DNA of 64,000 bases from an uncultured Flavobacteriales bacterium (GTDB lineage Bacteria > Bacteroidota > Bacteroidia > Flavobacteriales > Flavobacteriaceae): the NCBI GenBank assembly GCA_913058295.1, contig CAJXRD010000007.1:15771-79770 (forward strand). Reading direction: 5' to 3'. The notes under the pieces were generated by a model. It ran no database searches, had not been told where the DNA came from, and saw nothing but the letters and a program-made list of their open reading frames with translations. The translations under genes were made by a program, and so were the position numbers. Positions 4,836 through 35,697 of the stretch are shown one piece after another (position 1 is the stretch's first letter; each line of letters starts with the position of its first letter).

Positions 4836-6344
4836 TTGACTTCAAACCAGAAAAAAAATAAATTTCCGACTCCTCAAACGATATTATTGATTATTGCTGG
4901 ATTAGTAGCCATACTAACCTGGATGATTCCTTCAGGTCAGTACGATAGGCTGTCTTATGATAAAGTAGAAAATACTTTTGAAAGAACTCATTTAAAAGAA
5001 AAAATAACTCTTGAGGCAAGTCAGAAAACTCTAGATGAATTAAAAGTAAAAATCCCATTAGAGAAATTTACTAGCGGAGATATATGGAAACCTATTAGTA
5101 TTCCAAATACCTATCAAAAACTGGAACCCAAACCACAGGGGATAATAGAATACATTCAATCTCCATTAAAAGGAATTACGGAAGTTTCAGATATCATATT
5201 ATTAATATTAATCATTGGTGGTCTTATTGGAATTGTAAATTCTACTGGAGCTTTTGAAGCAGGGATATCTTGGCTAGGAAAAGCTCTTGAAGGAAAAGAG
5301 TTTATCTTAATAATTTTGGTTACTTCCTTAATAGCACTTGGAGGAACTACTTTTGGATTGGCTGAAGAAACTATTGCTTTTTACCCAATTCTTATACCCG
5401 TCTTTTTGGCTGCTCGATATGATGCTATAGTAGCTTTAGCGTCTATCTATATAGGATCGTCTATGGGAACTATGGCATCCACAGTAAACCCCTTCAGTAC
5501 TATAATAGCATCAGATGCTGCTGGTATTAATTGGACAGCTGGTCTTAATGGTAGGTTTGTTATGTTGGCCTTAGGATTGTTAATATGTATCATTTATATC
5601 ATTTGGTATGCACAAAGAGTAAAAAAGGACCCTACAAAATCTATTATTTATAGCCAAAAACAAGAAATTGATAATAGATTTGGTAATTTATCTAATAATA
5701 GTTCTGTACAGTTAACCTCAAGGTTAAGGTTGATCTTATTGGTTTTCGTTCTGTGTTTTGTGGTAATGATTTATGGGGTTTCAAAGTTAGATTGGTGGTT
5801 TTTAGAAATGACATCTGTATTTTTTGTAGGTGCCATATTAATTGGTTTCCTTTCTAGAACTAAAGAGCGAGTATTTGTAGATACCTTTATAAAAGGAGCC
5901 ACCGAATTATTAGGTGTTGCTTTTATAATTGGAATTGCACGAGGAGTTACGGTACTAATGGAAGATGGCCTTATTAGTGACACACTACTTTATTATTCTA
6001 GTAATTTAACAGATGGAATGAATAAAGGCCTGTTTATAAATACCATGTTATATATTTATGGTGGCTTATCCTTTTTTATTCCTTCCTCTTCAGGAATGGC
6101 TGTTTTAACTATGCCTATTATGTCTCCTTTAGCGGATGGTGTAGGCATAGGAAGAGAGTTTGTTGTAAACGCTTATCAATATGGCTTGGGTCTATTCGCC
6201 TTTTTAAATCCTACAGGACTTATTTTAGCATCCCTAGCCATTGTAAATGTGGGTTATGATAAGTGGTTAAAATTTGTCATGCCATTGGTAATTATTCTTT
6301 TATTACTCACCATGACGATACTTACAATTTCTGTTTATGTTTAA
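4836..6344 (+). CDS. YfcC/DcuC-family membrane transporter (basic amino acid antiporter-like)
   Basis: About 12 hydrophobic segments with PSGQY, GTTFGLAEE, TVNPFST, FFIPSSSG motifs. TTG start. Confidence 0.85.
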   Translation: MTSNQKKNKFPTPQTILLIIAGLVAILTWMIPSGQYDRLSYDKVENTFERTHLKEKITLEASQKTLDELKVKIPLEKFTSGDIWKPISIPNTYQKLEPKPQGIIEYIQSPLKGITEVSDIILLILIIGGLIGIVNSTGAFEAGISWLGKALEGKEFILIILVTSLIALGGTTFGLAEETIAFYPILIPVFLAARYDAIVALASIYIGSSMGTMASTVNPFSTIIASDAAGINWTAGLNGRFVMLALGLLICIIYIIWYAQRVKKDPTKSIIYSQKQEIDNRFGNLSNNSSVQLTSRLRLILLVFVLCFVVMIYGVSKLDWWFLEMTSVFFVGAILIGFLSRTKERVFVDTFIKGATELLGVAFIIGIARGVTVLMEDGLISDTLLYYSSNLTDGMNKGLFINTMLYIYGGLSFFIPSSSGMAVLTMPIMSPLADGVGIGREFVVNAYQYGLGLFAFLNPTGLILASLAIVNVGYDKWLKFVMPLVIILLLLTMTILTISVYV

Positions 6345-24270: not shown

Positions 24271-25632
24271 TTATAAACTTTTAATTCTTAAATTTTCCCA
24301 AGGAATATCATAAATCTGCATGACACTCGAAAGGGATTTTATTTTCACAAAAGGAACATTATTTTTTAATGGTGAGTTATTTATTATCTGCTTTCTAGGG
24401 TTGTTCTCTAGAGTTTTTAAAGAAAATTTTTCTGGGTGAATTAACTTAGACTCTATTCCTTCATATTGCAAGTTATAAATACTATCAGGTAGTTTTACCC
24501 AAACCTTTTTACTATCCTCTACATCAATATTGATATATTTTACTTTAGAAGAAACTGCAACACTCAGCATTTTAAAATTTCCTTGGGCATCGATACTTTC
24601 GGTAATATTATCAATAGATACTGTTGAAGTATTGGATATTATATGCATGTTTTTCACTTCATTTATCAATACAAAGTCTGAAAATAAAACATCAAGTTTT
24701 CCATTATTCCATTGATTAATTTCAAAGTTGGAATACGATCCCTTTATGGAAGTATTGATTCCATTAATCTTATTTGCTTGAAATAACACATAATTTAAAT
24801 CTGCTTCTAGGTTTTTGATTTCTTCAGAAAACACCACTTTACCATGCCTTACATTAATACGAAGTTTGGCATTTCTTGGAATTTTTATTTTTAGTGTTTT
24901 TTGGACAATTGCTCGTTTTGTTGATAAGGCACGTACATTTGTTGATGGTAGCTTACTCTTGCTTTTAAGTGTTGCTTTATTTACAATTTCTGGTTGTGTA
25001 TCTAGACTCGGCAAAGGTTCTTTTTTAGGTTTTCTTAATAGTATTCTCTCTTCCTTTGTCTTGTTATAGAACCGCCTTCCAATTTTTTCATTATTCTCTT
25101 TCTCCCACTGTTCTATATAAGTATTGCCTTTTTCTATATATGTATCAAAATCAAATTCTCCTTGGCTTTTGGACTCTTCATTATAATTCTTATTGTGATT
25201 GAGTGTTGAACTTCCCATACCCTTTTTTAAGGCTTCTATTTCTATTTTGGTAGTATTTAATTCCTCTGTATTTAAAAAATATCCTTCATAATATCCATGT
25301 TTTTTTAAATCAATATCTGTATTATTATTAGAAAAGGAACTTATCACTATTTTATTTTCATTTTTTTCAGAATTAAAATTCCACTCATAAAAATATGCTT
25401 CCACTTCTTTTTGGGATAAACCTTCTACCTCTAATAATGCTTCTACTATAACTACATCTTTGTCTGTTAATTCAAATTCTACATTGGTATACTTACTATC
25501 AAGCTCTATACTAACATTTTGATCAACTTGATACTCCTGCTGTTTCGATTTGCTTATCACCTGCCCAGAGGCATTTGTAATAATTACTACTAATGCTAAA
25601 ATTAGGAATATATTTCTTTTAAATAGTTTCAT
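24271..25632 (-). CDS. Hypothetical secreted protein of the ECF sigma cluster (adhesin/DUF4097-like beta-rich C-terminus)
   Basis: Signal peptide and LKIKIPRNAKLRINVRHG segment. Third gene of the overlapping sigma/anti-sigma cluster. Confidence 0.65.
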   Translation of the reverse strand: MKLFKRNIFLILALVVIITNASGQVISKSKQQEYQVDQNVSIELDSKYTNVEFELTDKDVVIVEALLEVEGLSQKEVEAYFYEWNFNSEKNENKIVISSFSNNNTDIDLKKHGYYEGYFLNTEELNTTKIEIEALKKGMGSSTLNHNKNYNEESKSQGEFDFDTYIEKGNTYIEQWEKENNEKIGRRFYNKTKEERILLRKPKKEPLPSLDTQPEIVNKATLKSKSKLPSTNVRALSTKRAIVQKTLKIKIPRNAKLRINVRHGKVVFSEEIKNLEADLNYVLFQANKINGINTSIKGSYSNFEINQWNNGKLDVLFSDFVLINEVKNMHIISNTSTVSIDNITESIDAQGNFKMLSVAVSSKVKYINIDVEDSKKVWVKLPDSIYNLQYEGIESKLIHPEKFSLKTLENNPRKQIINNSPLKNNVPFVKIKSLSSVMQIYDIPWENLRIKSL

Positions 25633-26161
25633 GTTCTTTATTGTTTAATGGGATCATTTCAGTTTTTAATGTTTGCAATAATTCTAATTGCATTTTTAAG
25701 TTATTTATCAAAGCGTTTATGCTTCTTGTATTAGGGCCTTCTTCATTTATTTCGATTACCAATTTTTTATATTCTCTTTTAAGAATTGAAAAACGATTCA
25801 TATATCGGTTAAAAATTGATTTGCCTTCCTTATTATCTTGTACCTCTAATAATGTGAGATTTATATTGGTTATATAGAAGTCTTCTATTTCTTCCAATTC
25901 TGGAGAAATAGCGCTCAAAATGAATTCAGATTGTATTGTTTTTTTATCTTGATTTATTGGATTAATTAATAAATATGAAGTGGTACCTAATGCTACAAAA
26001 AGCAATATGGATGCTGCAATTTTAAAAATTTCAAACGTATTGCGCTTTTTTACAGGTAATTCAGTATATAATCTTTCGATGAATAGATCTTCATGGTCCT
26101 TTCTTCGCGGATGATTTACTAAACGATCCTTTTCAAATAGTTTTTTAAGATTCTGTCCCAT
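25619..26161 (-). CDS. Putative anti-sigma factor (single TM helix)
   Basis: HEDLFIERL..L motif, IAASILLFVALG TM helix, helical C-terminus. Overlaps the ECF sigma stop. Confidence 0.65.
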   Translation of the reverse strand: MGQNLKKLFEKDRLVNHPRRKDHEDLFIERLYTELPVKKRNTFEIFKIAASILLFVALGTTSYLLINPINQDKKTIQSEFILSAISPELEEIEDFYITNINLTLLEVQDNKEGKSIFNRYMNRFSILKREYKKLVIEINEEGPNTRSINALINNLKMQLELLQTLKTEMIPLNNKEHETI

Positions 26162-26696
26162 ATCCTTTTTGTTTTAATAATTCTCTTAATTTAATTTTTC
26201 CTCGCATAAGTTGTGTTCTGGAAGCTATTATAGAAATATTCAAAATTTGTGAAATCTCTTCATGATCATATCCTTCTATTAAATAGAGCATCACTACAAA
26301 TTTGTATTTATCTGGAAGTTTGCTTATTTCTGTTTTAACATCTTCTAAAACTAGTTCTTCCTCAAAATTCCAGTTGTCATCATTATCCCCTTCAAAAGGA
26401 ATTACATTTACTTCTTCTAAAGCAACCACTTCCAACTGTTTCTTTTTTAAGTGATTTATGCAATTGTTTACAACGATTTTTTTTAGCCATGCGCCAAAAG
26501 TCACCTCTGCTTTAAACTGAGAGATATTTTTAAATGCGCTTAAAAAGGATTCTTGAATTATATCTTCGGCATTTTCTGAGTTCTTTAAAAATCGAATTGC
26601 TACATTATACATCCCTTGGTTATAATTCCTGTATAGCTCAATTTGAGCACGCTTGTTATTTAATTTACATTCTTTTATTAAATGAATATGTTGCAT
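26145..26696 (-). CDS. ECF RNA polymerase sigma factor
   Basis: AEDIIQESFLSAF, FGAWLKKIVVN (region 2), LPDKYKFVVMLYLIEGYDHEEISQIL (region 4). Confidence 0.95.
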   Translation of the reverse strand: MQHIHLIKECKLNNKRAQIELYRNYNQGMYNVAIRFLKNSENAEDIIQESFLSAFKNISQFKAEVTFGAWLKKIVVNNCINHLKKKQLEVVALEEVNVIPFEGDNDDNWNFEEELVLEDVKTEISKLPDKYKFVVMLYLIEGYDHEEISQILNISIIASRTQLMRGKIKLRELLKQKGYGTES

Positions 26697-26862: not shown

Positions 26863-28239
26863 CTAATTTTTAAATAGCAATGAAAAGGAAGTGTATTTAC
26901 CAACTTCAGAGCTGACCAATAAATTCCCACCATGTTTCTTTAATATGTTCTTAGAAAGGCTTAAACCTATTCCAGATCCATTCTTTTTTGTAGTATAAAA
27001 TGGAATGAATACCTGATTCATAATTTGTTCTTCGATTCCTATTCCATTATCGGTAAGTTGAAGCATCTTTTTATCTTTTAGCACTTCATAATTAAGAGTA
27101 ATCATAGGTGCTTCCCTACCCTGTAATGCGTGTATGCTATTATTAATAAGATTGATCAATACCTGTTCTATTAGCTTGCTATCTATTTCGATGCTAGCAT
27201 TTTTTGGAATCGGCAATATTTTTAAGTCGATGTTAGCTTTTTCTAAAGCAGGCTTCATTAGCAATTCTATACTCGATAAAAATTGTTTAACAATTACTTT
27301 TTGAGTCTTGGGTATAGGCACACTAGATATGGTTCTATAATCTTTTACAAATTCCAAGAGGCCTTCAGAACGTTTTTTAATGGTGGCAGCCGCCATATTA
27401 ATATCTTGAATGTCTTCATTATCCAATTGATCTGATCTTATCAATTCTCCTTTCTCATCTTCGGTTAAGGCTTTCATGGTAGAAGCCAAAGAACTTACTG
27501 GAGTAAAGGAATTGAGCATTTCATGAGCTAATATTCGAATTACATTATGCCAAGCTTCAATTTCCTTTTGTTCTATTTCGGAACGGATATCTTGAAAAGT
27601 AATAATTAAATATGGGATGTTTAATAATTGAATTTCTATAACCTCCAATGACAATTGTTTCCTTTCCGATTCATCTCCAAAATCGACTAAAGTTTTTCCT
27701 CCATCCGATAGTTTTTCAATCTCTTTAACTAACCATGACACTTGATTGGCTAAGCGATGCCAATATTTATGTTGTGGCTGCTGCAAAATATCACAGGCTG
27801 CTTTATTCAAAAATAAAATCTCTTCATTGGAAGTAGCATCGTATAAATCGTTCTTGTTAATGGAAATGATACCTAGATTTACATGTTCTAGGATATATTG
27901 AAAATATTTAAATTGGGCTTCTTTTTCAATTTTATTCCGTTTAAATATCTTGATAATCAGATTGAAATCATCGTATACTTTTACAAAGGAATCCCCTTTA
28001 TTGCTGGGTGAGAAATAAACCGAATAGTCTTCGTTTTTTAATGCTTCCAAGAATTTCACCAAAGAATAGTTGGTATTGTTCACATATCGAATTAAAAATG
28101 CGACCAAAAGAATTATGACTACCCCTATTCCAGCAGCAGAAAACCAAATCCCTTTTAATAAAAAGTGTGAGAAAAGTACACATAGTATTAGAATACTAAA
28201 AATTCGAAGGGCAACTTGTATGGTAAATCGTTTTATCAA
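26863..28239 (-). CDS. Sensor histidine kinase (NtrY-like)
   Basis: Two N-terminal TM helices, H-box LAHEMLNSFTP, N-box QVLINLINNS, DNGIGI, FIPFYTTK, GSGIGLS. Confidence 0.95.
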   Translation of the reverse strand: MIKRFTIQVALRIFSILILCVLFSHFLLKGIWFSAAGIGVVIILLVAFLIRYVNNTNYSLVKFLEALKNEDYSVYFSPSNKGDSFVKVYDDFNLIIKIFKRNKIEKEAQFKYFQYILEHVNLGIISINKNDLYDATSNEEILFLNKAACDILQQPQHKYWHRLANQVSWLVKEIEKLSDGGKTLVDFGDESERKQLSLEVIEIQLLNIPYLIITFQDIRSEIEQKEIEAWHNVIRILAHEMLNSFTPVSSLASTMKALTEDEKGELIRSDQLDNEDIQDINMAAATIKKRSEGLLEFVKDYRTISSVPIPKTQKVIVKQFLSSIELLMKPALEKANIDLKILPIPKNASIEIDSKLIEQVLINLINNSIHALQGREAPMITLNYEVLKDKKMLQLTDNGIGIEEQIMNQVFIPFYTTKKNGSGIGLSLSKNILKKHGGNLLVSSEVGKYTSFSLLFKN

Positions 28240-28250
28240 AATAAAAATTA

Positions 28251-29633
28251 TTATAGATTAAATTTTTCCAATCTGCGGTACAATGCAGCTCGAGTCAAGC
28301 CTAATTCTTTTGCAGCTTTCGAAATATTTCCTTCATATTTATCCAAAGCCTTTTGTACTAAAAGCTTTTCAATATCCTGAAGGTTTAAATTATCGTATTC
28401 ATTAGAATAATCCTTTGATTCCGGATTCTGGGTTGACAAATTAAAATCGGAAGGTTTAATTTCATGATCATCAGACATAATAACGCCACGTTCTATGGTA
28501 TGCTGAATTTCACGAACATTACCTGGCCATTTATGGTTTTGTAATATCGTTAAAGCTTCTTCATTTACTATTAAATGTGATTTATGGTATTTCTCTCTAA
28601 ACATTTGTAAATAGAGTTCTATAAAGTCTTTTATATCTTCAGGTCTTTGCCTCAATGGTGGAATGGTAATTTCAACCGTATTAATTCTAAACATCAAATC
28701 TTGCCTAAACTTCCCCTCTTCTACCCATTGATTTAATGGTGCATTGGTAGCAAACAAAAGTCTTGCATTAAAAGGACGCTCAATACCTTCTCCAAGCCTA
28801 GATACTTTACGATCTTGAAGAACGGTTAGCAACTTGGATTGTAAATTATAAGGAAGGTTTCCTATTTCATCCAGAAAAAGAGTACCGTTTTCTGCCATTT
28901 CAAAACGACCCGGTTTATCTTCCAAAGCATCAGTAAAAGCACCTTTCTTATGTCCAAAAAGTTCGCTTTCGAAAAGGTTTTCAGAAAGAGATCCTAAATC
29001 CACATGAATAAATGGTCCTTTAGAAAATACGGAACGTTTATGAATTTCTCTTGCAAGATGTTGTTTTCCAGTACCATTTTCACCTAAGATTAGAATACTA
29101 GCATCGGTAATACTAACCTTTTTTATGGTATTCATTACCTGTTTCATGGCTGGTGATCCTCCTATTATAGGGCCAAATTTTTGATCGTTATTATTTTGCA
29201 ATACTTCATTGGTATGTTCTAAAATTGCGATCTTTTTATTCGAATTGCTTAAAACTAATGCAGCATTAATAGTTGCCAAGAATTTTTCGTTGGACCAAGG
29301 TTTTAGGATAAAATCGAATGCCCCCATTTTAATGGCATTAACAGCCAACTCTACCTCTCCATAGGCGGTCATTAAGATAATCACCATTTGTGGATTGATA
29401 CTTAAAATATGCTTTAACCAATAAATGCCCTCTTTTCCATCATTAAATCCTATTCTATAATTCATATCCAAAACAATCACGTCGATATCTTCTTTAGATA
29501 TAATTTGATTGATCTCTTTAGGATTATTGCGGGTAATTACTTTTTCGAATTGTTTTTTCAATAATAGTTTTGCCGACAGTAAAACATCTTCATCGTCGTC
29601 AATAATTAATATGGTTGCATTGGTTTTTTGCAT
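28251..29633 (-). CDS. Sigma-54-dependent response regulator (NtrC family bEBP)
   Basis: Receiver domain (IIDDD, LDMN, MTAYG, KP), AAA+ GENGTGK, GAFTDA loop, FLDEIG, WPGNVRE, Fis-type HTH. Confidence 0.96.
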   Translation of the reverse strand: MQKTNATILIIDDDEDVLLSAKLLLKKQFEKVITRNNPKEINQIISKEDIDVIVLDMNYRIGFNDGKEGIYWLKHILSINPQMVIILMTAYGEVELAVNAIKMGAFDFILKPWSNEKFLATINAALVLSNSNKKIAILEHTNEVLQNNNDQKFGPIIGGSPAMKQVMNTIKKVSITDASILILGENGTGKQHLAREIHKRSVFSKGPFIHVDLGSLSENLFESELFGHKKGAFTDALEDKPGRFEMAENGTLFLDEIGNLPYNLQSKLLTVLQDRKVSRLGEGIERPFNARLLFATNAPLNQWVEEGKFRQDLMFRINTVEITIPPLRQRPEDIKDFIELYLQMFREKYHKSHLIVNEEALTILQNHKWPGNVREIQHTIERGVIMSDDHEIKPSDFNLSTQNPESKDYSNEYDNLNLQDIEKLLVQKALDKYEGNISKAAKELGLTRAALYRRLEKFNL

Positions 29634-29671: not shown

Positions 29672-29709
29672 TGTTCGATAATGAACAATAAAATGTCCGA
29701 AAATGAACA
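29672..29709. promoter_or_regulatory. Two tandem dyad enhancer (UAS) sites TGTTCGATAATGAACA and TGTCCGAAAATGAACA
   Basis: Sites at 29672-29687 and 29694-29709, 22 bp apart, between the bEBP gene and the sigma-54 box. Confidence 0.7.
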
Positions 29710-29773: not shown

Positions 29774-29788
29774 TGGCACATCGATTGA
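29774..29788 (+). promoter_or_regulatory. Sigma-54 (-24/-12) promoter TGGCAC-ATCGA-TTGA
   Basis: Correct GG-N10 spacing. The -12 element is GA instead of GC. Points toward the small ORFs and the exporter. Confidence 0.7.
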
Positions 29789-29832: not shown

Positions 29833-29919
29833 ATGAGAACTTTAAACAACAATCAATTATCAGGAACAACAAGAAGCACTAAAAGTTTTGTTTGGAATAG
29901 CAAAAGAAGCTTTAGATAA
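29833..29919 (+). CDS. Unannotated 28-aa cationic peptide MRTLNNNQLSGTTRSTKSFVWNSKRSFR
   Basis: First ATG after the sigma-54 box, with an A-rich leader. TAA at 29917-29919. Confidence 0.55.
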   Translation: MRTLNNNQLSGTTRSTKSFVWNSKRSFR

Positions 29920-29959
29920 AATTCCATTTAAAAAACTAATCAATCAAAAAACGAGCATT

Positions 29960-30076
29960 ATGACAACATCTATTTTAAATACTCAAATTGAACAAAAAAA
30001 TTTAGGTTTTTTATTAAATATAGAAATCAGTAAAAGATCGCGTTGGTCAAAATTAAACATTCGTCAATCAAACTAA
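29960..30076 (+). CDS. Unannotated 38-aa peptide MTTSILNTQIEQKNLGFLLNIEISKRSRWSKLNIRQSN
   Basis: ATG at 29960 after AATCAATCAAAAAACGAGCATT. It is the 3' part of the track ORF 29888..30076. Confidence 0.55.
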   Translation: MTTSILNTQIEQKNLGFLLNIEISKRSRWSKLNIRQSN

Positions 30077-30090
30077 TAAAATCAATCAAA

Positions 30091-30156
30091 ATGATATCCA
30101 TAATTATCGCAATCGCAAATTTTATTCTAAAAACAGTTCTACCCTTTTTATTTTAA
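30091..30156 (+). CDS. Unannotated 21-aa hydrophobic peptide MISIIIAIANFILKTVLPFLF
   Basis: ATG at 30091 after AAAATCAATCAAA. TAA at 30154-30156. Confidence 0.5.
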   Translation: MISIIIAIANFILKTVLPFLF

Positions 30157-30196: not shown

Positions 30197-31456
30197 ATGA
30201 AGCAACTGGGAATGGATAAAAGAATAGAAAAAAAGAGTTGGAACCGAACTAAGACCTTATACCTAGCGGGTATAATAGTATTTATCATACTTGCCTTTTT
30301 TGGTTTTAAAACTATGAATAGAAAGATCTATAAAATAGATGAGTCTAGAATAACCGTAAAGAAAGTAACTGCAGGAGATTTTCAAGATGTCATCCTTATC
30401 GATGGAGATGTAGAACCTATAAACCTTGTATTGGTAAATACGCTAGAAGGTGGTATTGTAGAAGAGATATTTATAGAGGATGGAATTTTTGTTGAAAAAG
30501 GAACTCCAATATTATTGCTTAGTAATCCAGCAGTAACCTTGAATTATATGAACCAAGAAACTGCAATTATTGAACAAATTAACAACCTGAGAAGTTTAAA
30601 GCTTTCTTTAGAAAAAGACCAAAGAGATTTAAATGAATCCTTGATCGATAGTGAAAATAGCTTGGCTGATGAAGAACGTTCTTATAAGGTAGATTCCGTA
30701 TTATATACTAAAGATGTTATTGCGAGGAATGACTATGTGGACAGACAGGAATCTTATAAGTACTTAAAAAACAAGCGTGATTTTATGGAGAATAACGTGA
30801 ATAAAAGCGCCAAGGATAATAGAATTCAAATTCAACAAATCAATACTTCTATTTCATTGATGCAGCGAAATTTAGAATTCATTCACGAAAATATTGAAAA
30901 GATGTTGGTACGTGCTCCTGTTTCTGGAATGTTATCTTCTTTCGATCCTGTGATTGGAGAATCCTATATTCAAAATCAAACCGTTGCTAAAATTGATGTT
31001 CAGTCAGGATTTAAAATAAAAGGACAGGTAGACGAATATTATCTAAGTATGGTGAAACCAGGACAACTGGCACGCTTTTCTTTCGATGGAAATCTAATCG
31101 ATTTAAAAGTAAAAAAAGTACTTCCTGAGGTAGTCAACAGACGTTTTGAAATAGAGCTAGTATTTGTTGAAGATGCACCCGAATCGGTTACCATTGGACA
31201 ATCTTTACAAGTAAGATTGGAATTATCTAAAGCACAGAAATCATTATTGATCCCTAGAGGAAGTTATTTTCAATCTTCAGGAGGACAATTTGTATATGTA
31301 CTAGATGGAAATAATGAAGCCCACAAACGCTATATCAAGTTGGGAAGTCAAAACCCAAGTTACTATCAAGTATTAGAAGGATTAAGTGAAGGTGAAGAAT
31401 TGATTACCTCCTCTTATGATGCATATAAAAATTACGAATCAATCAAAATAAATTAA
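30197..31456 (+). CDS. Efflux periplasmic adaptor (membrane fusion protein, MacA-like)
   Basis: N-terminal TM, lipoyl halves (EGGIVEEIFIEDG; VRAPVSG), coiled-coil hairpin, LLIPRG, VLEGLSEGEELIT. Confidence 0.93.
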   Translation: MKQLGMDKRIEKKSWNRTKTLYLAGIIVFIILAFFGFKTMNRKIYKIDESRITVKKVTAGDFQDVILIDGDVEPINLVLVNTLEGGIVEEIFIEDGIFVEKGTPILLLSNPAVTLNYMNQETAIIEQINNLRSLKLSLEKDQRDLNESLIDSENSLADEERSYKVDSVLYTKDVIARNDYVDRQESYKYLKNKRDFMENNVNKSAKDNRIQIQQINTSISLMQRNLEFIHENIEKMLVRAPVSGMLSSFDPVIGESYIQNQTVAKIDVQSGFKIKGQVDEYYLSMVKPGQLARFSFDGNLIDLKVKKVLPEVVNRRFEIELVFVEDAPESVTIGQSLQVRLELSKAQKSLLIPRGSYFQSSGGQFVYVLDGNNEAHKRYIKLGSQNPSYYQVLEGLSEGEELITSSYDAYKNYESIKIN

Positions 31457-31473
31457 TATAAAAATCAAAAATC

Positions 31474-32169
31474 ATGATCAAATTAAGCAATTTATCAAAA
31501 GTGTACAGAACGGACGAAATTGAATCGACCGCATTAAATGAAGTTTCCTTTGAAATTAATGAAGGAGAGTTTGTATCCATCATGGGACCTTCAGGTTGTG
31601 GAAAGTCTACCCTACTTAATATTTTGGGAATGTTAGATAAACCAGAAAGTGGATCTTATCAGTTTTTAGATAATGAAGTAGCACAACTAAAGGAAAAGGA
31701 ACGTTCTGATGTTCGTAAAAAGAATATTGGTTTCATATTCCAAAACTTTAATTTGATCGATGAATTGACCGTTTTTGAAAATATTGAATTGCCATTGCTT
31801 TACAATAAAGTAAATTCTTCAGAACGTAAGAAAAGAGTGAATGAGCTTATTGAAAAAATAGGAATCTCGCATAGAGCATCACATTATCCACAACAACTTT
31901 CTGGAGGACAACAACAGCGTGTTGCCGTAGCTCGTGCTTTAATCACAAAGCCACCATTAATTTTAGCAGATGAGCCTACAGGTAATCTAGATAGCTCTCA
32001 TGGTAATGAAGTGATGGAATTGATGTGTGAATTAAATGAAGCAGGAACAACCATCATCATGGTGACACACTCTGCACACGATGCAAGTTATTCTAATAGA
32101 ATTATCAATTTATTAGATGGACAAGTTGTATCTGAAAAGAAAAGTAAATCGGTACAGGCTGCCATATAA
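31474..32169 (+). CDS. ABC transporter ATP-binding protein (MacB/LolD type)
   Basis: [37 protein letters not shown]. Confidence 0.96.
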
Positions 32170-32186: not shown

Positions 32187-34592
32187 ATGTTTAAAAATTA
32201 TTTAAAAGTAGCCTTTAGAAGCCTCAACAAGAACAGAGTCTATTCCGTAATCAATATTTTAGGTTTGGCATTAGGCTTAACGGTAACCATTCTCGTTTTT
32301 ATGTTTATTAAAGATGAAACTAGTTATGAAAAACATTGGGATGGATATGAACGTGTTTATAGAACCGGAATAAAAGCGGATATGATGGGGCAGAAAATGG
32401 ATGCTCCAGTATCGCCAAGTCCTATGGCAAATGCACTACGAACCGAATTTACCGATGTAGAAACTGCCACTAGAATTAATACGATTAACCAAGAGATCAT
32501 GATGCGTCATGAGCAAACCAAAGTATATATACAAAAAGGAGTCTATGCAGACAGCACCTTCTTTAAAATATTTAACTATGAATTTGTTCATGGGGATCCA
32601 AATACGGTTTTAAAAGAAGATAATGCCATCGTTTTGACTGAAGAAACTGCCCGTAAATTATTTGGTGACAAAAGTGCTTTGGGAGAACTGGTTAATTATG
32701 ATAATAGACAAGACTATGTAGTTAAAGGGATTGTAAAGGAACCAAAAGGACATGCACATTTTCATTTTGATATGTTTATGGCTCAAAATAGTATTCGAAA
32801 TGTATGGATGCAAAATAATTTCCACACCTATGTGAAACTGAAAGAAGGTGCAGATTATACTGCTTTTGAAACGGAAATGAAACGTAACTTTATTAAAAAG
32901 ATCGAACCCGATGTGGAGCGATTCTTAAAAATTACGGTAGAAAAGTTTTTTGAGCAAGGCAACGCTTTCGAATATCAATTACAACCTTTAAAAGACATCC
33001 ATTTGTATTCGCATAAAGACTGGGAAATTGAACAAAATGGAAATATTATTTATATCTATGTGTTTATAGGTATTGCCTTATTGGTAATTTTAATAGCAGG
33101 GATTAATTTTATGAATTTATCCACTGCGAGAGCGGGTAAAAGAGCCAAAGAAGTTGGAGTTCGTAAGGTTACGGGTGCATCCAGAAAAATGTTGATTGTA
33201 CAGTTTTTAACCGAATCGATCATACAAAGCTTTATAGCACTTTTCTTAGCATTTATTTTGGTAGAATTGTTTTTACCAGGATTTAATAATATTATGGAGA
33301 CCAACCTGTATCTTTTTAATGATCATTTAGGAATGACCTTAGCTTTTTCTTTAGGAGTTACCTTGTTTTATGGATTGTTTGCAGGAAGTTATCCAGCATT
33401 CTTCCTCTCTGCTTTTCAACCTATAGCCGTATTAAAGGGAGATCTTACTAAAACTAAAGGAGGTACCTTATTAAGAAAATCTTTGGTTGTAATTCAATTT
33501 ACAGCTTCCACCATTTTAATTATTGGAATGATCATTATTTTTAAACAAATCTCATTCTTGCAAAATAAAGACATTGGATTTAATGGAGATCAGGTATTAG
33601 TGGTACCAATTCAAACAGATCCTATGGTAGAAAATTTCAGAAATTATAAAGACATTTTCTTAAAGAACAGCAATGTGTTAAGTGTTACTAGAGCTGACTA
33701 TTACCCTGGAGACACCCCTAACCAAAACATGTATGCTGTAGAAGGGAATGAAGAGCAGTTTCCTTTATGGAATTTGGGAGTTGACTATGATTTTTTCAAA
33801 ACCTTAAATGTGGAACTTCTGGAAGGAAGAAAATTTGAAAGAGAAAAAGAATCGGACTCTATCCCCTATTTTATTATAAATGAAACTGCTGTAAAGACTT
33901 TAAATTTAGAAAATACGGTAGGAACGAGACTTGGAACATTTATAAATCAAAACGGAGATATGGCTTATGGAAATATTATCGGTATCGTAAAAGATTTTCA
34001 TATAGAAGGATTTAACCAACCTATTCGACCTATGGTATTATCGATTAGCAATAATTTATGGTTTGCATCCTTTAAAATTGCGCCAAACGATATGAGTGCT
34101 ACTGTAGATTTTATTGAAAACGAATGGAATAAACTAGAACCTACGCATCCGTTTCGATATACCTATTTAGATCAGAAATTTGGAGCCTTATTACGACAAC
34201 AAGAGAATTTTGGAACCATGTTTCTATTCTTAACCATTCTTGCTATTATTATTTCAGCAATGGGATTATATGGCTTGGCTTCGTATACCGCCGAGCAAAG
34301 AACCAAAGAGATAGGAATACGAAAAGTATTGGGAGCTTCAGTTTCACAGATTATGAATATGCTTACCAAAGATTTTATCAAGTTGGTATTAATAGCTAAT
34401 ATTTTCGCTTGGCCTATCACCTATTTATTGGCTAAGAATTGGTTAACCAATTTTTCCTATCAAATAGATATGCCCATTATGCCATTTATTTTTGCAACCA
34501 TATTAGCATTGATAATCGCTATAATAACGGTGAGTTCTCAAGCTTATTTAGCTGCGAATTCAGATCCAGTAAAAGCATTGAAGTATGAATAG
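32187..34592 (+). CDS. ABC permease with duplicated MacB-PCD/FtsX modules
   Basis: Two FtsX halves: RAKEVGVRKVTGAS and RTKEIGIRKVLGAS. Ends in ANSDPVKALKYE. Confidence 0.95.
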   Translation: MFKNYLKVAFRSLNKNRVYSVINILGLALGLTVTILVFMFIKDETSYEKHWDGYERVYRTGIKADMMGQKMDAPVSPSPMANALRTEFTDVETATRINTINQEIMMRHEQTKVYIQKGVYADSTFFKIFNYEFVHGDPNTVLKEDNAIVLTEETARKLFGDKSALGELVNYDNRQDYVVKGIVKEPKGHAHFHFDMFMAQNSIRNVWMQNNFHTYVKLKEGADYTAFETEMKRNFIKKIEPDVERFLKITVEKFFEQGNAFEYQLQPLKDIHLYSHKDWEIEQNGNIIYIYVFIGIALLVILIAGINFMNLSTARAGKRAKEVGVRKVTGASRKMLIVQFLTESIIQSFIALFLAFILVELFLPGFNNIMETNLYLFNDHLGMTLAFSLGVTLFYGLFAGSYPAFFLSAFQPIAVLKGDLTKTKGGTLLRKSLVVIQFTASTILIIGMIIIFKQISFLQNKDIGFNGDQVLVVPIQTDPMVENFRNYKDIFLKNSNVLSVTRADYYPGDTPNQNMYAVEGNEEQFPLWNLGVDYDFFKTLNVELLEGRKFEREKESDSIPYFIINETAVKTLNLENTVGTRLGTFINQNGDMAYGNIIGIVKDFHIEGFNQPIRPMVLSISNNLWFASFKIAPNDMSATVDFIENEWNKLEPTHPFRYTYLDQKFGALLRQQENFGTMFLFLTILAIIISAMGLYGLASYTAEQRTKEIGIRKVLGASVSQIMNMLTKDFIKLVLIANIFAWPITYLLAKNWLTNFSYQIDMPIMPFIFATILALIIAIITVSSQAYLAANSDPVKALKYE

Positions 34593-34728: not shown

Positions 34729-35697
34729 CTACAAATCGGATAAAACACTATTCATCAAATTTAGGTTGTAGCTATTTATTTTTTGGTGTGAAGGCATCCA
34801 GCCTAATAAAAACCTGGTGAAATCTGTACATGCAATGGGATACATTTTTCTCCATTCCTGTTCAAATTCTTCGAAATCAATAAAAAATGTACTAGATTCA
34901 AGGGATTGTTTTAATTCAGAAAAATAGAATTCCAAAAGCTCGTCTTGATATAATTCACTTTCAGAATTGGAAAGGCAACTTCCTAAAAAGTAGGCAACAT
35001 CTTTCATTCCGCAACCACCACCAACATATTGAAAATCTACCGCAGCAACATTTTCGCCATTTTCAGAAAAACAAAAATTAGCAAGTTTTGCATCTCCGTG
35101 AACAATGGTTTGGTACTTGCATTGGCTTAATAAATCATCTATTAATGATGCCTTAGATTTTAACTCTTCATTTTTAATATTTTTAAATTCATCTGGTCGA
35201 GTTTTCAAATGCCAATAAGTACCAACATCCCATAAACCCTTAGGTTCGTGGAATAAGAAAGTAGCATGAAAATTTGCTAACCATTTTAAACAAACTTTAA
35301 CCTCTAATAAATTAAGTTGTTGTTTTCGTAAGGGAAAATTCACATTTAAATCTTCCAAAACAATCCATTGGTTATTACCTTCAGAAAATGAACCAACTAG
35401 TTCTGGAACTTTACAATTATTGATACATTGCTGACTCCATTTTTCATACCAATACGTTTCCACTTTATAAGACTTAACCTTTCTATCGTGAGAGTATTCA
35501 GTATTCCAACCTCTTGGATGTTCATTGACTTGATTTAAAGATATAAATTTTACTACAACTGAATTAAGTGATGCCTTGTGTAATTGATAACGAGAAATCC
35601 TACCATAATCGCTCCACAAAGATTGAATGATTTCAATTTCTTCACAGGCAGTTGCTTTGGTAACTTTTAAAAGGTAGTCTTTAAAATCTGAATTCAT
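34729..35697 (-). CDS. APH/choline/ecdysteroid-kinase-like phosphotransferase
   Basis: VHGDAKLANF and AVDFQYVG catalytic motifs, plus VVVK and VLEDL. Confidence 0.85.
   Translation of the reverse strand: MNSDFKDYLLKVTKATACEEIEIIQSLWSDYGRISRYQLHKASLNSVVVKFISLNQVNEHPRGWNTEYSHDRKVKSYKVETYWYEKWSQQCINNCKVPELVGSFSEGNNQWIVLEDLNVNFPLRKQQLNLLEVKVCLKWLANFHATFLFHEPKGLWDVGTYWHLKTRPDEFKNIKNEELKSKASLIDDLLSQCKYQTIVHGDAKLANFCFSENGENVAAVDFQYVGGGCGMKDVAYFLGSCLSNSESELYQDELLEFYFSELKQSLESSTFFIDFEEFEQEWRKMYPIACTDFTRFLLGWMPSHQKINSYNLNLMNSVLSDL

Follow-up and report, generated by a model that had tools for sequence, protein, structure and literature searches.

The window analysed here is a stretch of 64,000 nucleotides (nt) from an uncultured member of the Flavobacteriaceae (contig CAJXRD010000007.1, positions 15,771 to 79,770; assembly GCA_913058295.1), and the element of interest is an operon in which a sigma-54-type promoter is followed by three very small open reading frames (ORFs), referred to as P1, P2 and P3, and by the genes of an ATP-binding cassette (ABC) pump composed of a periplasmic adaptor, an ATPase and a permease. 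Judged by comparative sequence evidence, P1, P2 and P3 are real, evolutionarily maintained and so far unannotated protein-coding genes that sit within the transcribed leader of an operon dependent on sigma-54. Marine Flavobacteriaceae have a large, undescribed set of highly basic mini-proteins, to which P1 and P2 belong; P3 is, from its predicted properties, a one-helix membrane mini-protein specific to the pump operon. Tentatively, and at somewhat less than an even chance, the locus can be read as one sigma-54 operon of three small proteins and a pump, in which P3 would be a membrane partner and P1 and P2 would be recruited stress mini-proteins that are perhaps cargo of the pump.

Micro-ORFs in the leader of a sigma-54-type operon

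A preliminary description of this DNA, made from its letters and a list of ORFs, had reported three co-oriented, unannotated ORFs with ATG starts in a gap of about 410 bp between a promoter and the adaptor gene. All three are present at the positions and with the translations given there, and the distance from the promoter to the adaptor ATG at 30197 is 409 nt. Each start codon follows an A-rich leader, with an A at position -3 in every case. Also confirmed were the composition of P1 (net charge +6, zero acidic residues, nine Ser/Thr), the strong hydrophobicity of P3 (mean Kyte-Doolittle hydropathy 2.19) and an SKRS sequence beside a Trp common to P1 and P2, which proved to be part of a wider NSKR...W motif of the P1 and P2 families. 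The ORF of P2 extends upstream to a TTG at 29888, yet orthologues favour the ATG at 29960.

Orthologous loci were collected from one genome per species, which yielded 36 loci with an adaptor at 70-96% identity, the upstream DNA being readable in 34 of them; here and below the genome samples are draws and not censuses, and the shortness of the peptides gives trees, profile comparisons and ratios of nonsynonymous to synonymous change (pN/pS) low power. The loci span many genera of the Flavobacteriaceae, among them Ichthyenterobacterium, Jejuia, Flaviramulus, Wocania, Kordia, Psychroserpens, Lacinutrix, Gilvirhabdus, Lutimonas, Lutibacter and Urechidicola, and cultured carriers include Ichthyenterobacterium magnum DSM 26283, Lacinutrix jangbogonensis PAMC 27137, Lutimonas saemankumensis, Lutimonas halocynthiae and Jejuia spongiicola. 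The genes for a sensor kinase, a response regulator, the adaptor, the ATPase and the permease are syntenic in about 29-34 loci, with the regulator gene beside the adaptor gene in 34; the flanks vary, and no further conserved gene was found beyond this five-gene block in the orthologous loci.

The micro-ORFs recur within this block to differing degrees. P3-type peptides were encountered in 30 loci in addition to the window, and as a frameshifted copy in one more; they are always 20-21 amino acids (aa) long, and the second codon position is their most conserved one. Besides the window, about 21 loci have P2-type peptides (35-41 aa) and six have P1-type peptides (28 aa), in three tandem copies in two of the six. 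Gene order is not constant, as P3 precedes P2 in the Lutimonas group and its relatives. Of the cultured carriers, Lacinutrix jangbogonensis PAMC 27137 has three P1 copies along with P2 and P3, and Lutimonas saemankumensis has P3 and P2. Across 22 leaders, ATG-initiated ORFs of at least 18 aa cover 65% of the plus strand, versus 20% of the minus strand and 13% of shuffled sequence. The preliminary description had proposed synteny and frame conservation across the Flavobacteriaceae as a check on the ORFs, and in-frame families of all three peptides are indeed found upstream of orthologous adaptor genes in different genera.

Summed pairwise pN/pS values are 0.375 for P1, 0.57 for P3 and 0.73 for P2, the last at saturating divergence. 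Among 55 distinct P1 copies the length is exactly 28 aa and the Trp is fixed seven residues from the end, and the invariant residues are specified by synonymous codons (four each for T3, S18 and R26, and a 31:24 split for N22). Because frame, length and residues are conserved while synonymous positions vary, translation of the micro-ORFs is near certain on evolutionary grounds. Codon choice in P1 also depends on the position: AGA without exception at R2, nearly always AAC at N5 and N6 but AAT at N7, and CGT or CGC at R26 against AGA at R25 and R28, so that a constraint at the RNA level (start-region sequence, hairpin arm) appears to act beside the one on the protein. P1, P2 and P3 match no Pfam family at E-values up to 10 and no NCBIfam family at E-values up to 1, and full-text literature searches gave no match for the peptide strings, or for darobactin-like or sigma-54/FtsX/HlyD systems in Flavobacteria.

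The promoter bears the hallmarks of sigma-54 control, namely the -24/-12 spacing, upstream dyads, an adjacent gene for an AAA+ activator and the presence of rpoN in the genome (contig C14; Sigma54_DBD, 172 bits). The sequence TGGCAC-N5-TTG[CA] has four matches on both strands of the whole 3.07-Mb assembly, of which the window promoter is one; its -12 element, GC in some orthologues, is GA in the majority of them and in the window. Of the 34 loci scanned, 33 have a TGTTCG-N4-CGAACA dyad whose start is exactly 80 bp ahead of the -24 element, and in 30 of them a second dyad is matched 22 bp further upstream. The distance from the promoter to the adaptor ATG ranges from 30 to 748 nt across loci and tracks the number of micro-ORFs, and the enhancer-promoter geometry is fixed. 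With promoter, dyads, adjacent NtrC-type regulator and kinase all present, the sigma-54 and two-component setting of the preliminary description holds as a prediction from sequence. Of four more distant pump homologues (about 34% identity), two were seen to have a sigma-54 promoter, and these two showed no micro-ORF array before the adaptor gene; the other MacB-like operons of this genome (contigs C37 and C44) have no sigma-54 promoter, and no linked two-component genes were noticed there.

No terminator-like site was found between promoter and pump in the window, as the preliminary description had stated for the region before the exporter, and the leader RNA forms less structure than shuffled sequence does (z +2.37). 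Rfam searches of the window and of five array loci returned chance-level matches only. A known RNA element or riboswitch in the leader was rejected on the basis of these chance-level matches and the unstructured leader. The parts of the locus are listed in Table 1; the kinase and regulator genes are divergent from the micro-ORFs and the co-oriented pump genes.

Table 1. Features of the mini-protein and pump locus, in window coordinates
Feature	Position	Strand	Description
Sensor histidine kinase	26863..28239	-	Pfam HATPase_c; two N-terminal membrane helices, then cytoplasmic PAS-like region and HATPase domain
NtrC-type response regulator	28251..29633	-	Pfam Response_reg, Sigma54_activat, HTH_8 (receiver, sigma-54 AAA+, Fis-type helix-turn-helix)
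Enhancer dyad 1, TGTTCGATAATGAACA	29672-29687	.	Starts 22 bp before dyad 2
Enhancer dyad 2, TGTCCGAAAATGAACA	29694-29709	.	Starts 80 bp before promoter
Sigma-54 promoter (predicted), TGGCAC-N5-TTGA	29774-29788	+	-12 element is GA, not GC
P1	29833-29919	+	28-aa basic mini-protein; start MRTLNNNQ..., end ...WNSKR.FR
P2	29960-30076	+	38-aa basic mini-protein
P3	30091-30156	+	21-aa single-helix hydrophobic mini-protein
HlyD-type periplasmic adaptor	30197..31456	+	Pfam HlyD_3
ABC ATPase	31474..32169	+	Pfam ABC_tran; 231 aa; best DarD-like match of the genome
Duplicated MacB_PCD/FtsX permease	32187..34592	+	Pfam MacB_PCD, FtsX; 801 aa; eight predicted membrane helices (ADOP / DarB-like)

Three further genes adjoin the locus. 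A gene for an extracytoplasmic function (ECF) sigma factor (26145-26696, minus strand) lies directly beside the kinase gene, in a neighbourhood that is not conserved in orthologous loci, and is overlapped by a 180-aa ORF (25619-26161, minus strand) that has no Pfam match and may encode an anti-sigma factor. On the other side, a gene for an ecdysteroid-kinase-like phosphotransferase of the APH family (34729-35697, minus strand) is convergent with the permease gene and is not kept beside the pump elsewhere.

P1 and P2 families beyond the pump operon

In the preliminary description P1 and P2 formed part of a candidate new system with the exporter, but they are not private to the pump: both families are spread across the Flavobacteriaceae, and their usual home is in arrays behind ECF-type promoters elsewhere in the genome. 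The P1 profile matches 154 of 401 sampled Flavobacteriaceae genomes (116 of 302 genera), mostly over the full 28 residues and with E-values of about 1e-13 to 1e-17. Matches often come as two to four tandem copies 120-160 nt apart, each with its own start context, and 18 of the 20 best P1 loci are far from the pump. The usual locus consists of one to three P1 genes and then a companion of 43-45 aa, behind a near-invariant promoter region carrying GTAAC-N16-CGTC, a motif of the ECF-sigma type. The present genome has six P1 copies at five sites, including its own array of this kind on contig C71 (about 5352-5560, minus strand; locus L088), where GTAAC-N16-CGTC is followed by two P1 paralogues of 28 and 29 aa and a 44-aa ORF. 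Database relatives of the 44-aa companion are all labelled hypothetical protein and show no Pfam domain. On contigs C59 and C32 an intact P1 gene stands by itself, with nothing co-oriented downstream, and in many arrays the next gene is convergent; elsewhere P1 is followed by genes of unrelated kinds, for example those for a CMD-family protein and an acetyltransferase.

The P2 profile matches 37 of 301 genomes, the five best matches being pump-linked. Other P2 relatives examined are basic peptides of 36-37 aa from other Flavobacteriaceae genera, nearly identical to each other within tandem arrays of up to five, with the consensus core ...PTES[RK]...FS.F[KR]NSKRV.W...RN[YF]... In 12 of 16 P2-type arrays examined (loci L134-L158, for example L141:1501-2425) the ECF-type motif of the P1 arrays is located within 400 nt upstream. 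Judging by shared motifs, promoter and array slot, basic mini-proteins with the NSKR...W motif would form a single functional set, of which P1 and P2 are two branches. Profile comparison among the P1, P2 and 44-aa families returned probabilities of 1-6%, the peptides being too short to give it power, and an AlphaFold2 model of P2 as a single helix is uninformative at moderate confidence (predicted local distance difference test score, 72).

The P1 of the window is a member of the same 28-aa family as the P1 genes of the ECF-promoter arrays; its cassette differs from those arrays in being under sigma-54, in being joined to a pump operon, in lacking a terminal hairpin and in containing P2 and the pump-specific P3. 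The hairpin in question is formed by 12-13 bp between P1 codons 24-27 and the sequence just past the stop, its loop containing the stop codon and a U-run coming next; it folds at -12 to -17 kcal/mol (z about -6) and shows compensatory changes between genera (loci L072, L073, L080, L082-L085, L094 and L096, usually at the last P1 copy). This structure, which could be a leaky terminator or a translation-sensitive attenuator, was seen at about 10 of the 22 P1 loci that lie outside the pump operon; every pump-linked copy lacks it, including that of the window, where the 3' end of P1 folds at -1.5 kcal/mol versus the -12 to -17 kcal/mol of the hairpin-bearing loci. Its absence from pump-linked copies is expected if such copies must be read through. 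About a third of the non-pump P1 loci examined also have a 185-aa gene of the ExbD/TolR family on the same strand after the peptide array, and most loci of this type carry, divergently upstream, a conserved gene whose product, about 225 aa long, has an N-terminus like a signal peptide and matches no Pfam family; these neighbours belong to the ECF-promoter loci L072, L073, L082-L084, L094 and L097.

Pump-linked P1 copies do not form one clade. Those of locus L038 are nearest to ECF-array copies of another genome, and this locus also has a 44-aa companion of the array type, while those of locus L045 are nearest to array copies in two other genomes. The scattered positions of the pump-linked copies and the companion of L038 suggest that the P1/P2 cassette was captured repeatedly by the pump operon, within which P1 has been amplified in tandem to three copies. 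A second linkage of P1 to a transporter occurs on contig C22 of this genome (11646-11732; L087:550-7310), where a P1 copy lies between genes for two membrane proteases of the Rce1/CPBP type and an ABC transporter consisting of an ATPase and a 1184-aa fusion of an ABC-2 permease with an M1 peptidase. Three of the eight closest orthologous loci of this site have a P1 gene in the same position, and the arrangement is found in three genera in all (L100 and L101 being the two others); the site may be a peptide processing and export locus.

Pump, kinase and P3 compared with known systems

All three pump components resemble the darobactin exporter in full-length NCBIfam matches that stay below cut-off. 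The adaptor scores 190 bits over its full length against NCBIfam DarC (cut-off 450), the ATPase 290.6 bits against DarD (NF038007; cut-off 375) and the permease 291 bits against ADOP and 142 bits against DarB (DarB cut-off 700), both permease scores being below cut-off. The pump thus appears to belong to the same subfamily as DarBCD, its proteins not being equivalogs. The nearest solved structures for the permease are the MacB entries 5lil and 5nik. With the MacAB-TolC system the pump has in common a HlyD adaptor, a MacB periplasmic core domain and FtsX membrane domains; it differs in having the ATPase as a separate polypeptide, an internally duplicated permease with eight helices and no TolC gene in the locus, and its scores against the MacA and MacB equivalogs are far below cut-off.

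DarB, DarC and DarD export a ribosomal peptide, darobactin (PMC9055067), and the darABCDE cluster of Photorhabdus resembles the present locus in that a small ribosomal peptide gene is followed by genes for an adaptor, an ATPase and a permease of apparently the same subfamily. The C-terminus of P1, W-N-[S/T]-K-R-x-[F/Y] plus one residue, is also reminiscent of the DarA core WNWSKSF and its follower QEI. The P1 core, however, has a single Trp, whereas the darobactin core requires two Trp and one Lys for its two cross-links (PMC9055067), and the locus differs further in its sigma-54 control, in the size of its peptides (28-38 aa versus 58 aa) and in the lack of a DarE-type radical-SAM/SPASM enzyme. 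No radical-SAM or other modifying gene was found in any of the 36 pump loci, and no SPASM domain in the genome, which is 97.6% complete. The 14 radical-SAM genes detected are all on other contigs and most look housekeeping-like by length and N-terminus alone; three of 461-506 aa lie within 13 kb on contig C14 (39540-52179), have N-termini like those of the B12-binding class and are unlinked to peptide loci. A daropeptide cluster was rejected, as there is no DarE-type enzyme, no second Trp in the core and no NCBIfam precursor match. In keeping with the preliminary description, which had noted neither a RiPP (a peptide made by the ribosome and modified after translation) enzyme nor a double-glycine leader nearby, the peptides have no GG motif. 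A double-glycine or class II bacteriocin locus was likewise rejected, there being no GG motif, no peptidase domain on the ATPase and no conserved extra gene that could serve for immunity.

In the kinase, hydropathy places two N-terminal membrane helices within about residues 1-56, separated by a loop of about four residues, and this N-terminus is conserved in 15 orthologues. With two helices and so small a loop, the kinase can be expected to sense only within the membrane or through a partner. The arrangement recalls the Bce modules of Firmicutes (BceAB-BceRS), which sense and detoxify peptide antibiotics and in which an FtsX/MacB-type transporter with a large external domain likewise stands beside a loop-less two-helix kinase and the transporter operon is the target of the regulator, a relationship that is predicted here from the promoter and dyads. 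The present locus differs from Bce modules in using an NtrC-type sigma-54 activator and not an OmpR-type regulator, in having a HlyD adaptor (as expected in a diderm), in its duplicated MacB_PCD/FtsX permease with eight predicted helices in place of the 10-helix BceB-type permease, and in the three micro-genes of the operon leader.

The preliminary description had likened P3 to modulins or toxins. Phenol-soluble modulins, together with their Pmt exporter, do resemble it in length (about 21 aa), in the lack of a signal peptide and in the proximity of an ABC exporter; they are amphipathic, however, whereas the mean hydrophobicity <H> of 29 P3 sequences is 0.71 and the hydrophobic moment muH 0.31, and the pump is of a different ABC class from Pmt. 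High hydrophobicity with a low moment marks P3 as transmembrane-like and not amphipathic, so that the modulin comparison fails. Position 14 of P3 is frequently acidic or polar. Small membrane proteins that modulate sensors or pumps are known from the pairs MgrB-PhoQ and AcrZ-AcrB, and P3 is similar to these in being a single hydrophobic helix within the predicted regulon of a kinase and beside pump genes. It is unrelated to them in sequence and shorter, at 21 aa, and is a candidate partner of the kinase or pump.

Proposed function and alternatives

In the tentatively favoured reading, a membrane signal would be perceived by the kinase, through the pump by analogy with Bce-type modules, and P3 would be situated within the kinase-pump complex as a partner or a feedback connector. 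Such Bce-like sensing is suggested because a two-helix kinase with a tiny loop adjoins a pump of the FtsX/MacB type. The signal would lead to phosphorylation of the NtrC-type regulator, which would bind the two dyads and fire the sigma-54 promoter, and a single unstructured mRNA would then give rise to P1, P2, P3 and the pump together. That these genes form one operon is argued by the combination of fixed enhancer-promoter geometry with a leader of variable length, and by the absence of a terminator, of leader structure and of a P1 stop hairpin. The P1/P2 cassette would have been recruited into the operon in this lineage, which would couple synthesis of the basic mini-proteins to that of the pump; their likeliest role would be as unmodified, leaderless cargo moved by the pump out of the cytoplasm or the inner membrane, or else they may be stress effectors retained in the cell whose induction simply coincides with the pump's. 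The link to peptide export is drawn from the DarBCD relatives, the repeated capture of P1, the protease and ABC transporter site on contig C22 and the tandem amplification of P1. A more specific version, in which these loci constitute a Bacteroidota peptide-export and sensing circuit with unmodified, leaderless basic mini-proteins of a family-wide, stress-induced superfamily as cargo of a DarBCD-like MacB pump, a loop-less kinase as readout, a 21-aa membrane mini-protein and sigma-54 feedback, is considered unlikely.

Several observations weigh against tying the peptides to the pump. The distributions of P1 and the pump are independent: one complete genome of this genus carries five copies of P1 but lacks an adaptor orthologue, a close one is absent from all 24 genomes of the genus that were sampled, and three of the five pump genomes that lack P1/P2 at the pump carry no P1 anywhere, so that neither P1 nor the pump needs the other. 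Even so, their association is not fortuitous, to judge from the repeated capture of P1, the missing hairpin in pump-linked copies and the site on contig C22. Several pump loci have P3 only, and at least three have no recognizable micro-ORF. P1, P2 and P3 have neither a signal peptide nor a leader-cleavage motif, and no immunity gene accompanies them; no exporter is linked to the ECF-promoter arrays, and the locus contains no gene for an outer-membrane channel.

These facts are accommodated by an alternative in which P1 and P2 are cytoplasmic stress mini-proteins, for example binders of nucleic acid, the ribosome or the face of the inner membrane, that are co-induced with the pump and neither exported nor regulatory, P3 being the only one tied to the pump or kinase. 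The prevalence of P1/P2 relatives in stand-alone arrays behind ECF-type promoters with no exporter nearby, the independent distribution of P1 and the pump, the very basic and polar character of P1 and P2, which have no export signal, and the P1 copies before unrelated genes (CMD-family protein, acetyltransferase) all fit this view. It sits less well with the apparent repeated capture of P1/P2 cassettes within the pump operon and with the second conserved P1 linkage, to a different ABC transporter and proteases; moreover, ECF regulons usually serve the cell envelope. On balance this explanation is possible but somewhat doubtful. The ribosome-stalling alternative raised in the preliminary description, according to which the micro-ORFs are cis-acting leader or arrest peptides and stalling at the conserved W..KR..[FY] end of P1/P2 tunes transcription or translation of the pump genes downstream, is improbable. 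It can point to the position in the 5' leader of the operon, to the constant length of P1 with its Trp seven residues from the end, to the stop-codon hairpin with compensatory changes in about 10 of 22 non-pump P1 loci and to the position-specific codons (CGT/CGC at R26, AAC at N5 and N6). The window leader, however, has neither a terminator nor stable structure, each tandem copy has its own start context, and no runs of a single regulatory codon were found. A role purely in cis is unlikely given the solitary P1 genes of contigs C59 and C32, the many arrays that run up against a convergent gene, and the identical promoter and enhancer retained by pump loci that lack P1/P2, and the idea is thereby weakened.

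Two further explanations take their cue from peptide export. P3, alone or with P1/P2, might be a secreted hydrophobic pheromone in the manner of the streptococcal short hydrophobic peptides (SHPs), exported by the pump and sensed by the kinase in an autoinduction loop. Peptide genes, exporter and two-component system do form one conserved module, P3 has a fitting length of about 21 aa and is hydrophobic with an often acidic or polar position 14, and the kinase would be able to sense only within the membrane; on the other hand, neither a processing protease nor an import system is linked, a few pump loci are without P3, and the hydrophobicity suits a stable membrane helix equally well, which makes a pheromone improbable, too. 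Least credible, at a very slim chance, is that a RiPP resembling darobactin or dynobactin is made from P1 and P2 as its precursors, with an enzyme encoded elsewhere and export by the DarBCD-like pump. DarB, DarC and DarD are the best named matches of the pump and the end of P1 with its short follower resembles the DarA core, but no modifying gene lies in the pump loci and no SPASM domain was found in the 97.6%-complete genome (the 14 radical-SAM genes being unlinked), the second Trp needed for both cross-links is missing, and there is no Pfam or NCBIfam precursor match.

Whatever their function, P1, P2 and P3 represent three conserved gene families that annotation pipelines have missed and that have no Pfam, NCBIfam or Rfam match. 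The locus is the first in which these mini-proteins are wired to recognizable machinery, namely an ABC pump of the peptide type and a two-component system that includes a sigma-54 activator, and their function is thereby directly testable. It also represents a Bce-like design of a pump plus a loop-less kinase in a diderm phylum, here using sigma-54. If the mini-proteins are indeed cargo within an export and sensing circuit, the locus would point to peptide-based signalling or the secretion of envelope-active peptides in the Bacteroidota, of which, to our knowledge, none has been described, and it would provide a first function for the mini-protein arrays found in about 40% of Flavobacteriaceae genera.

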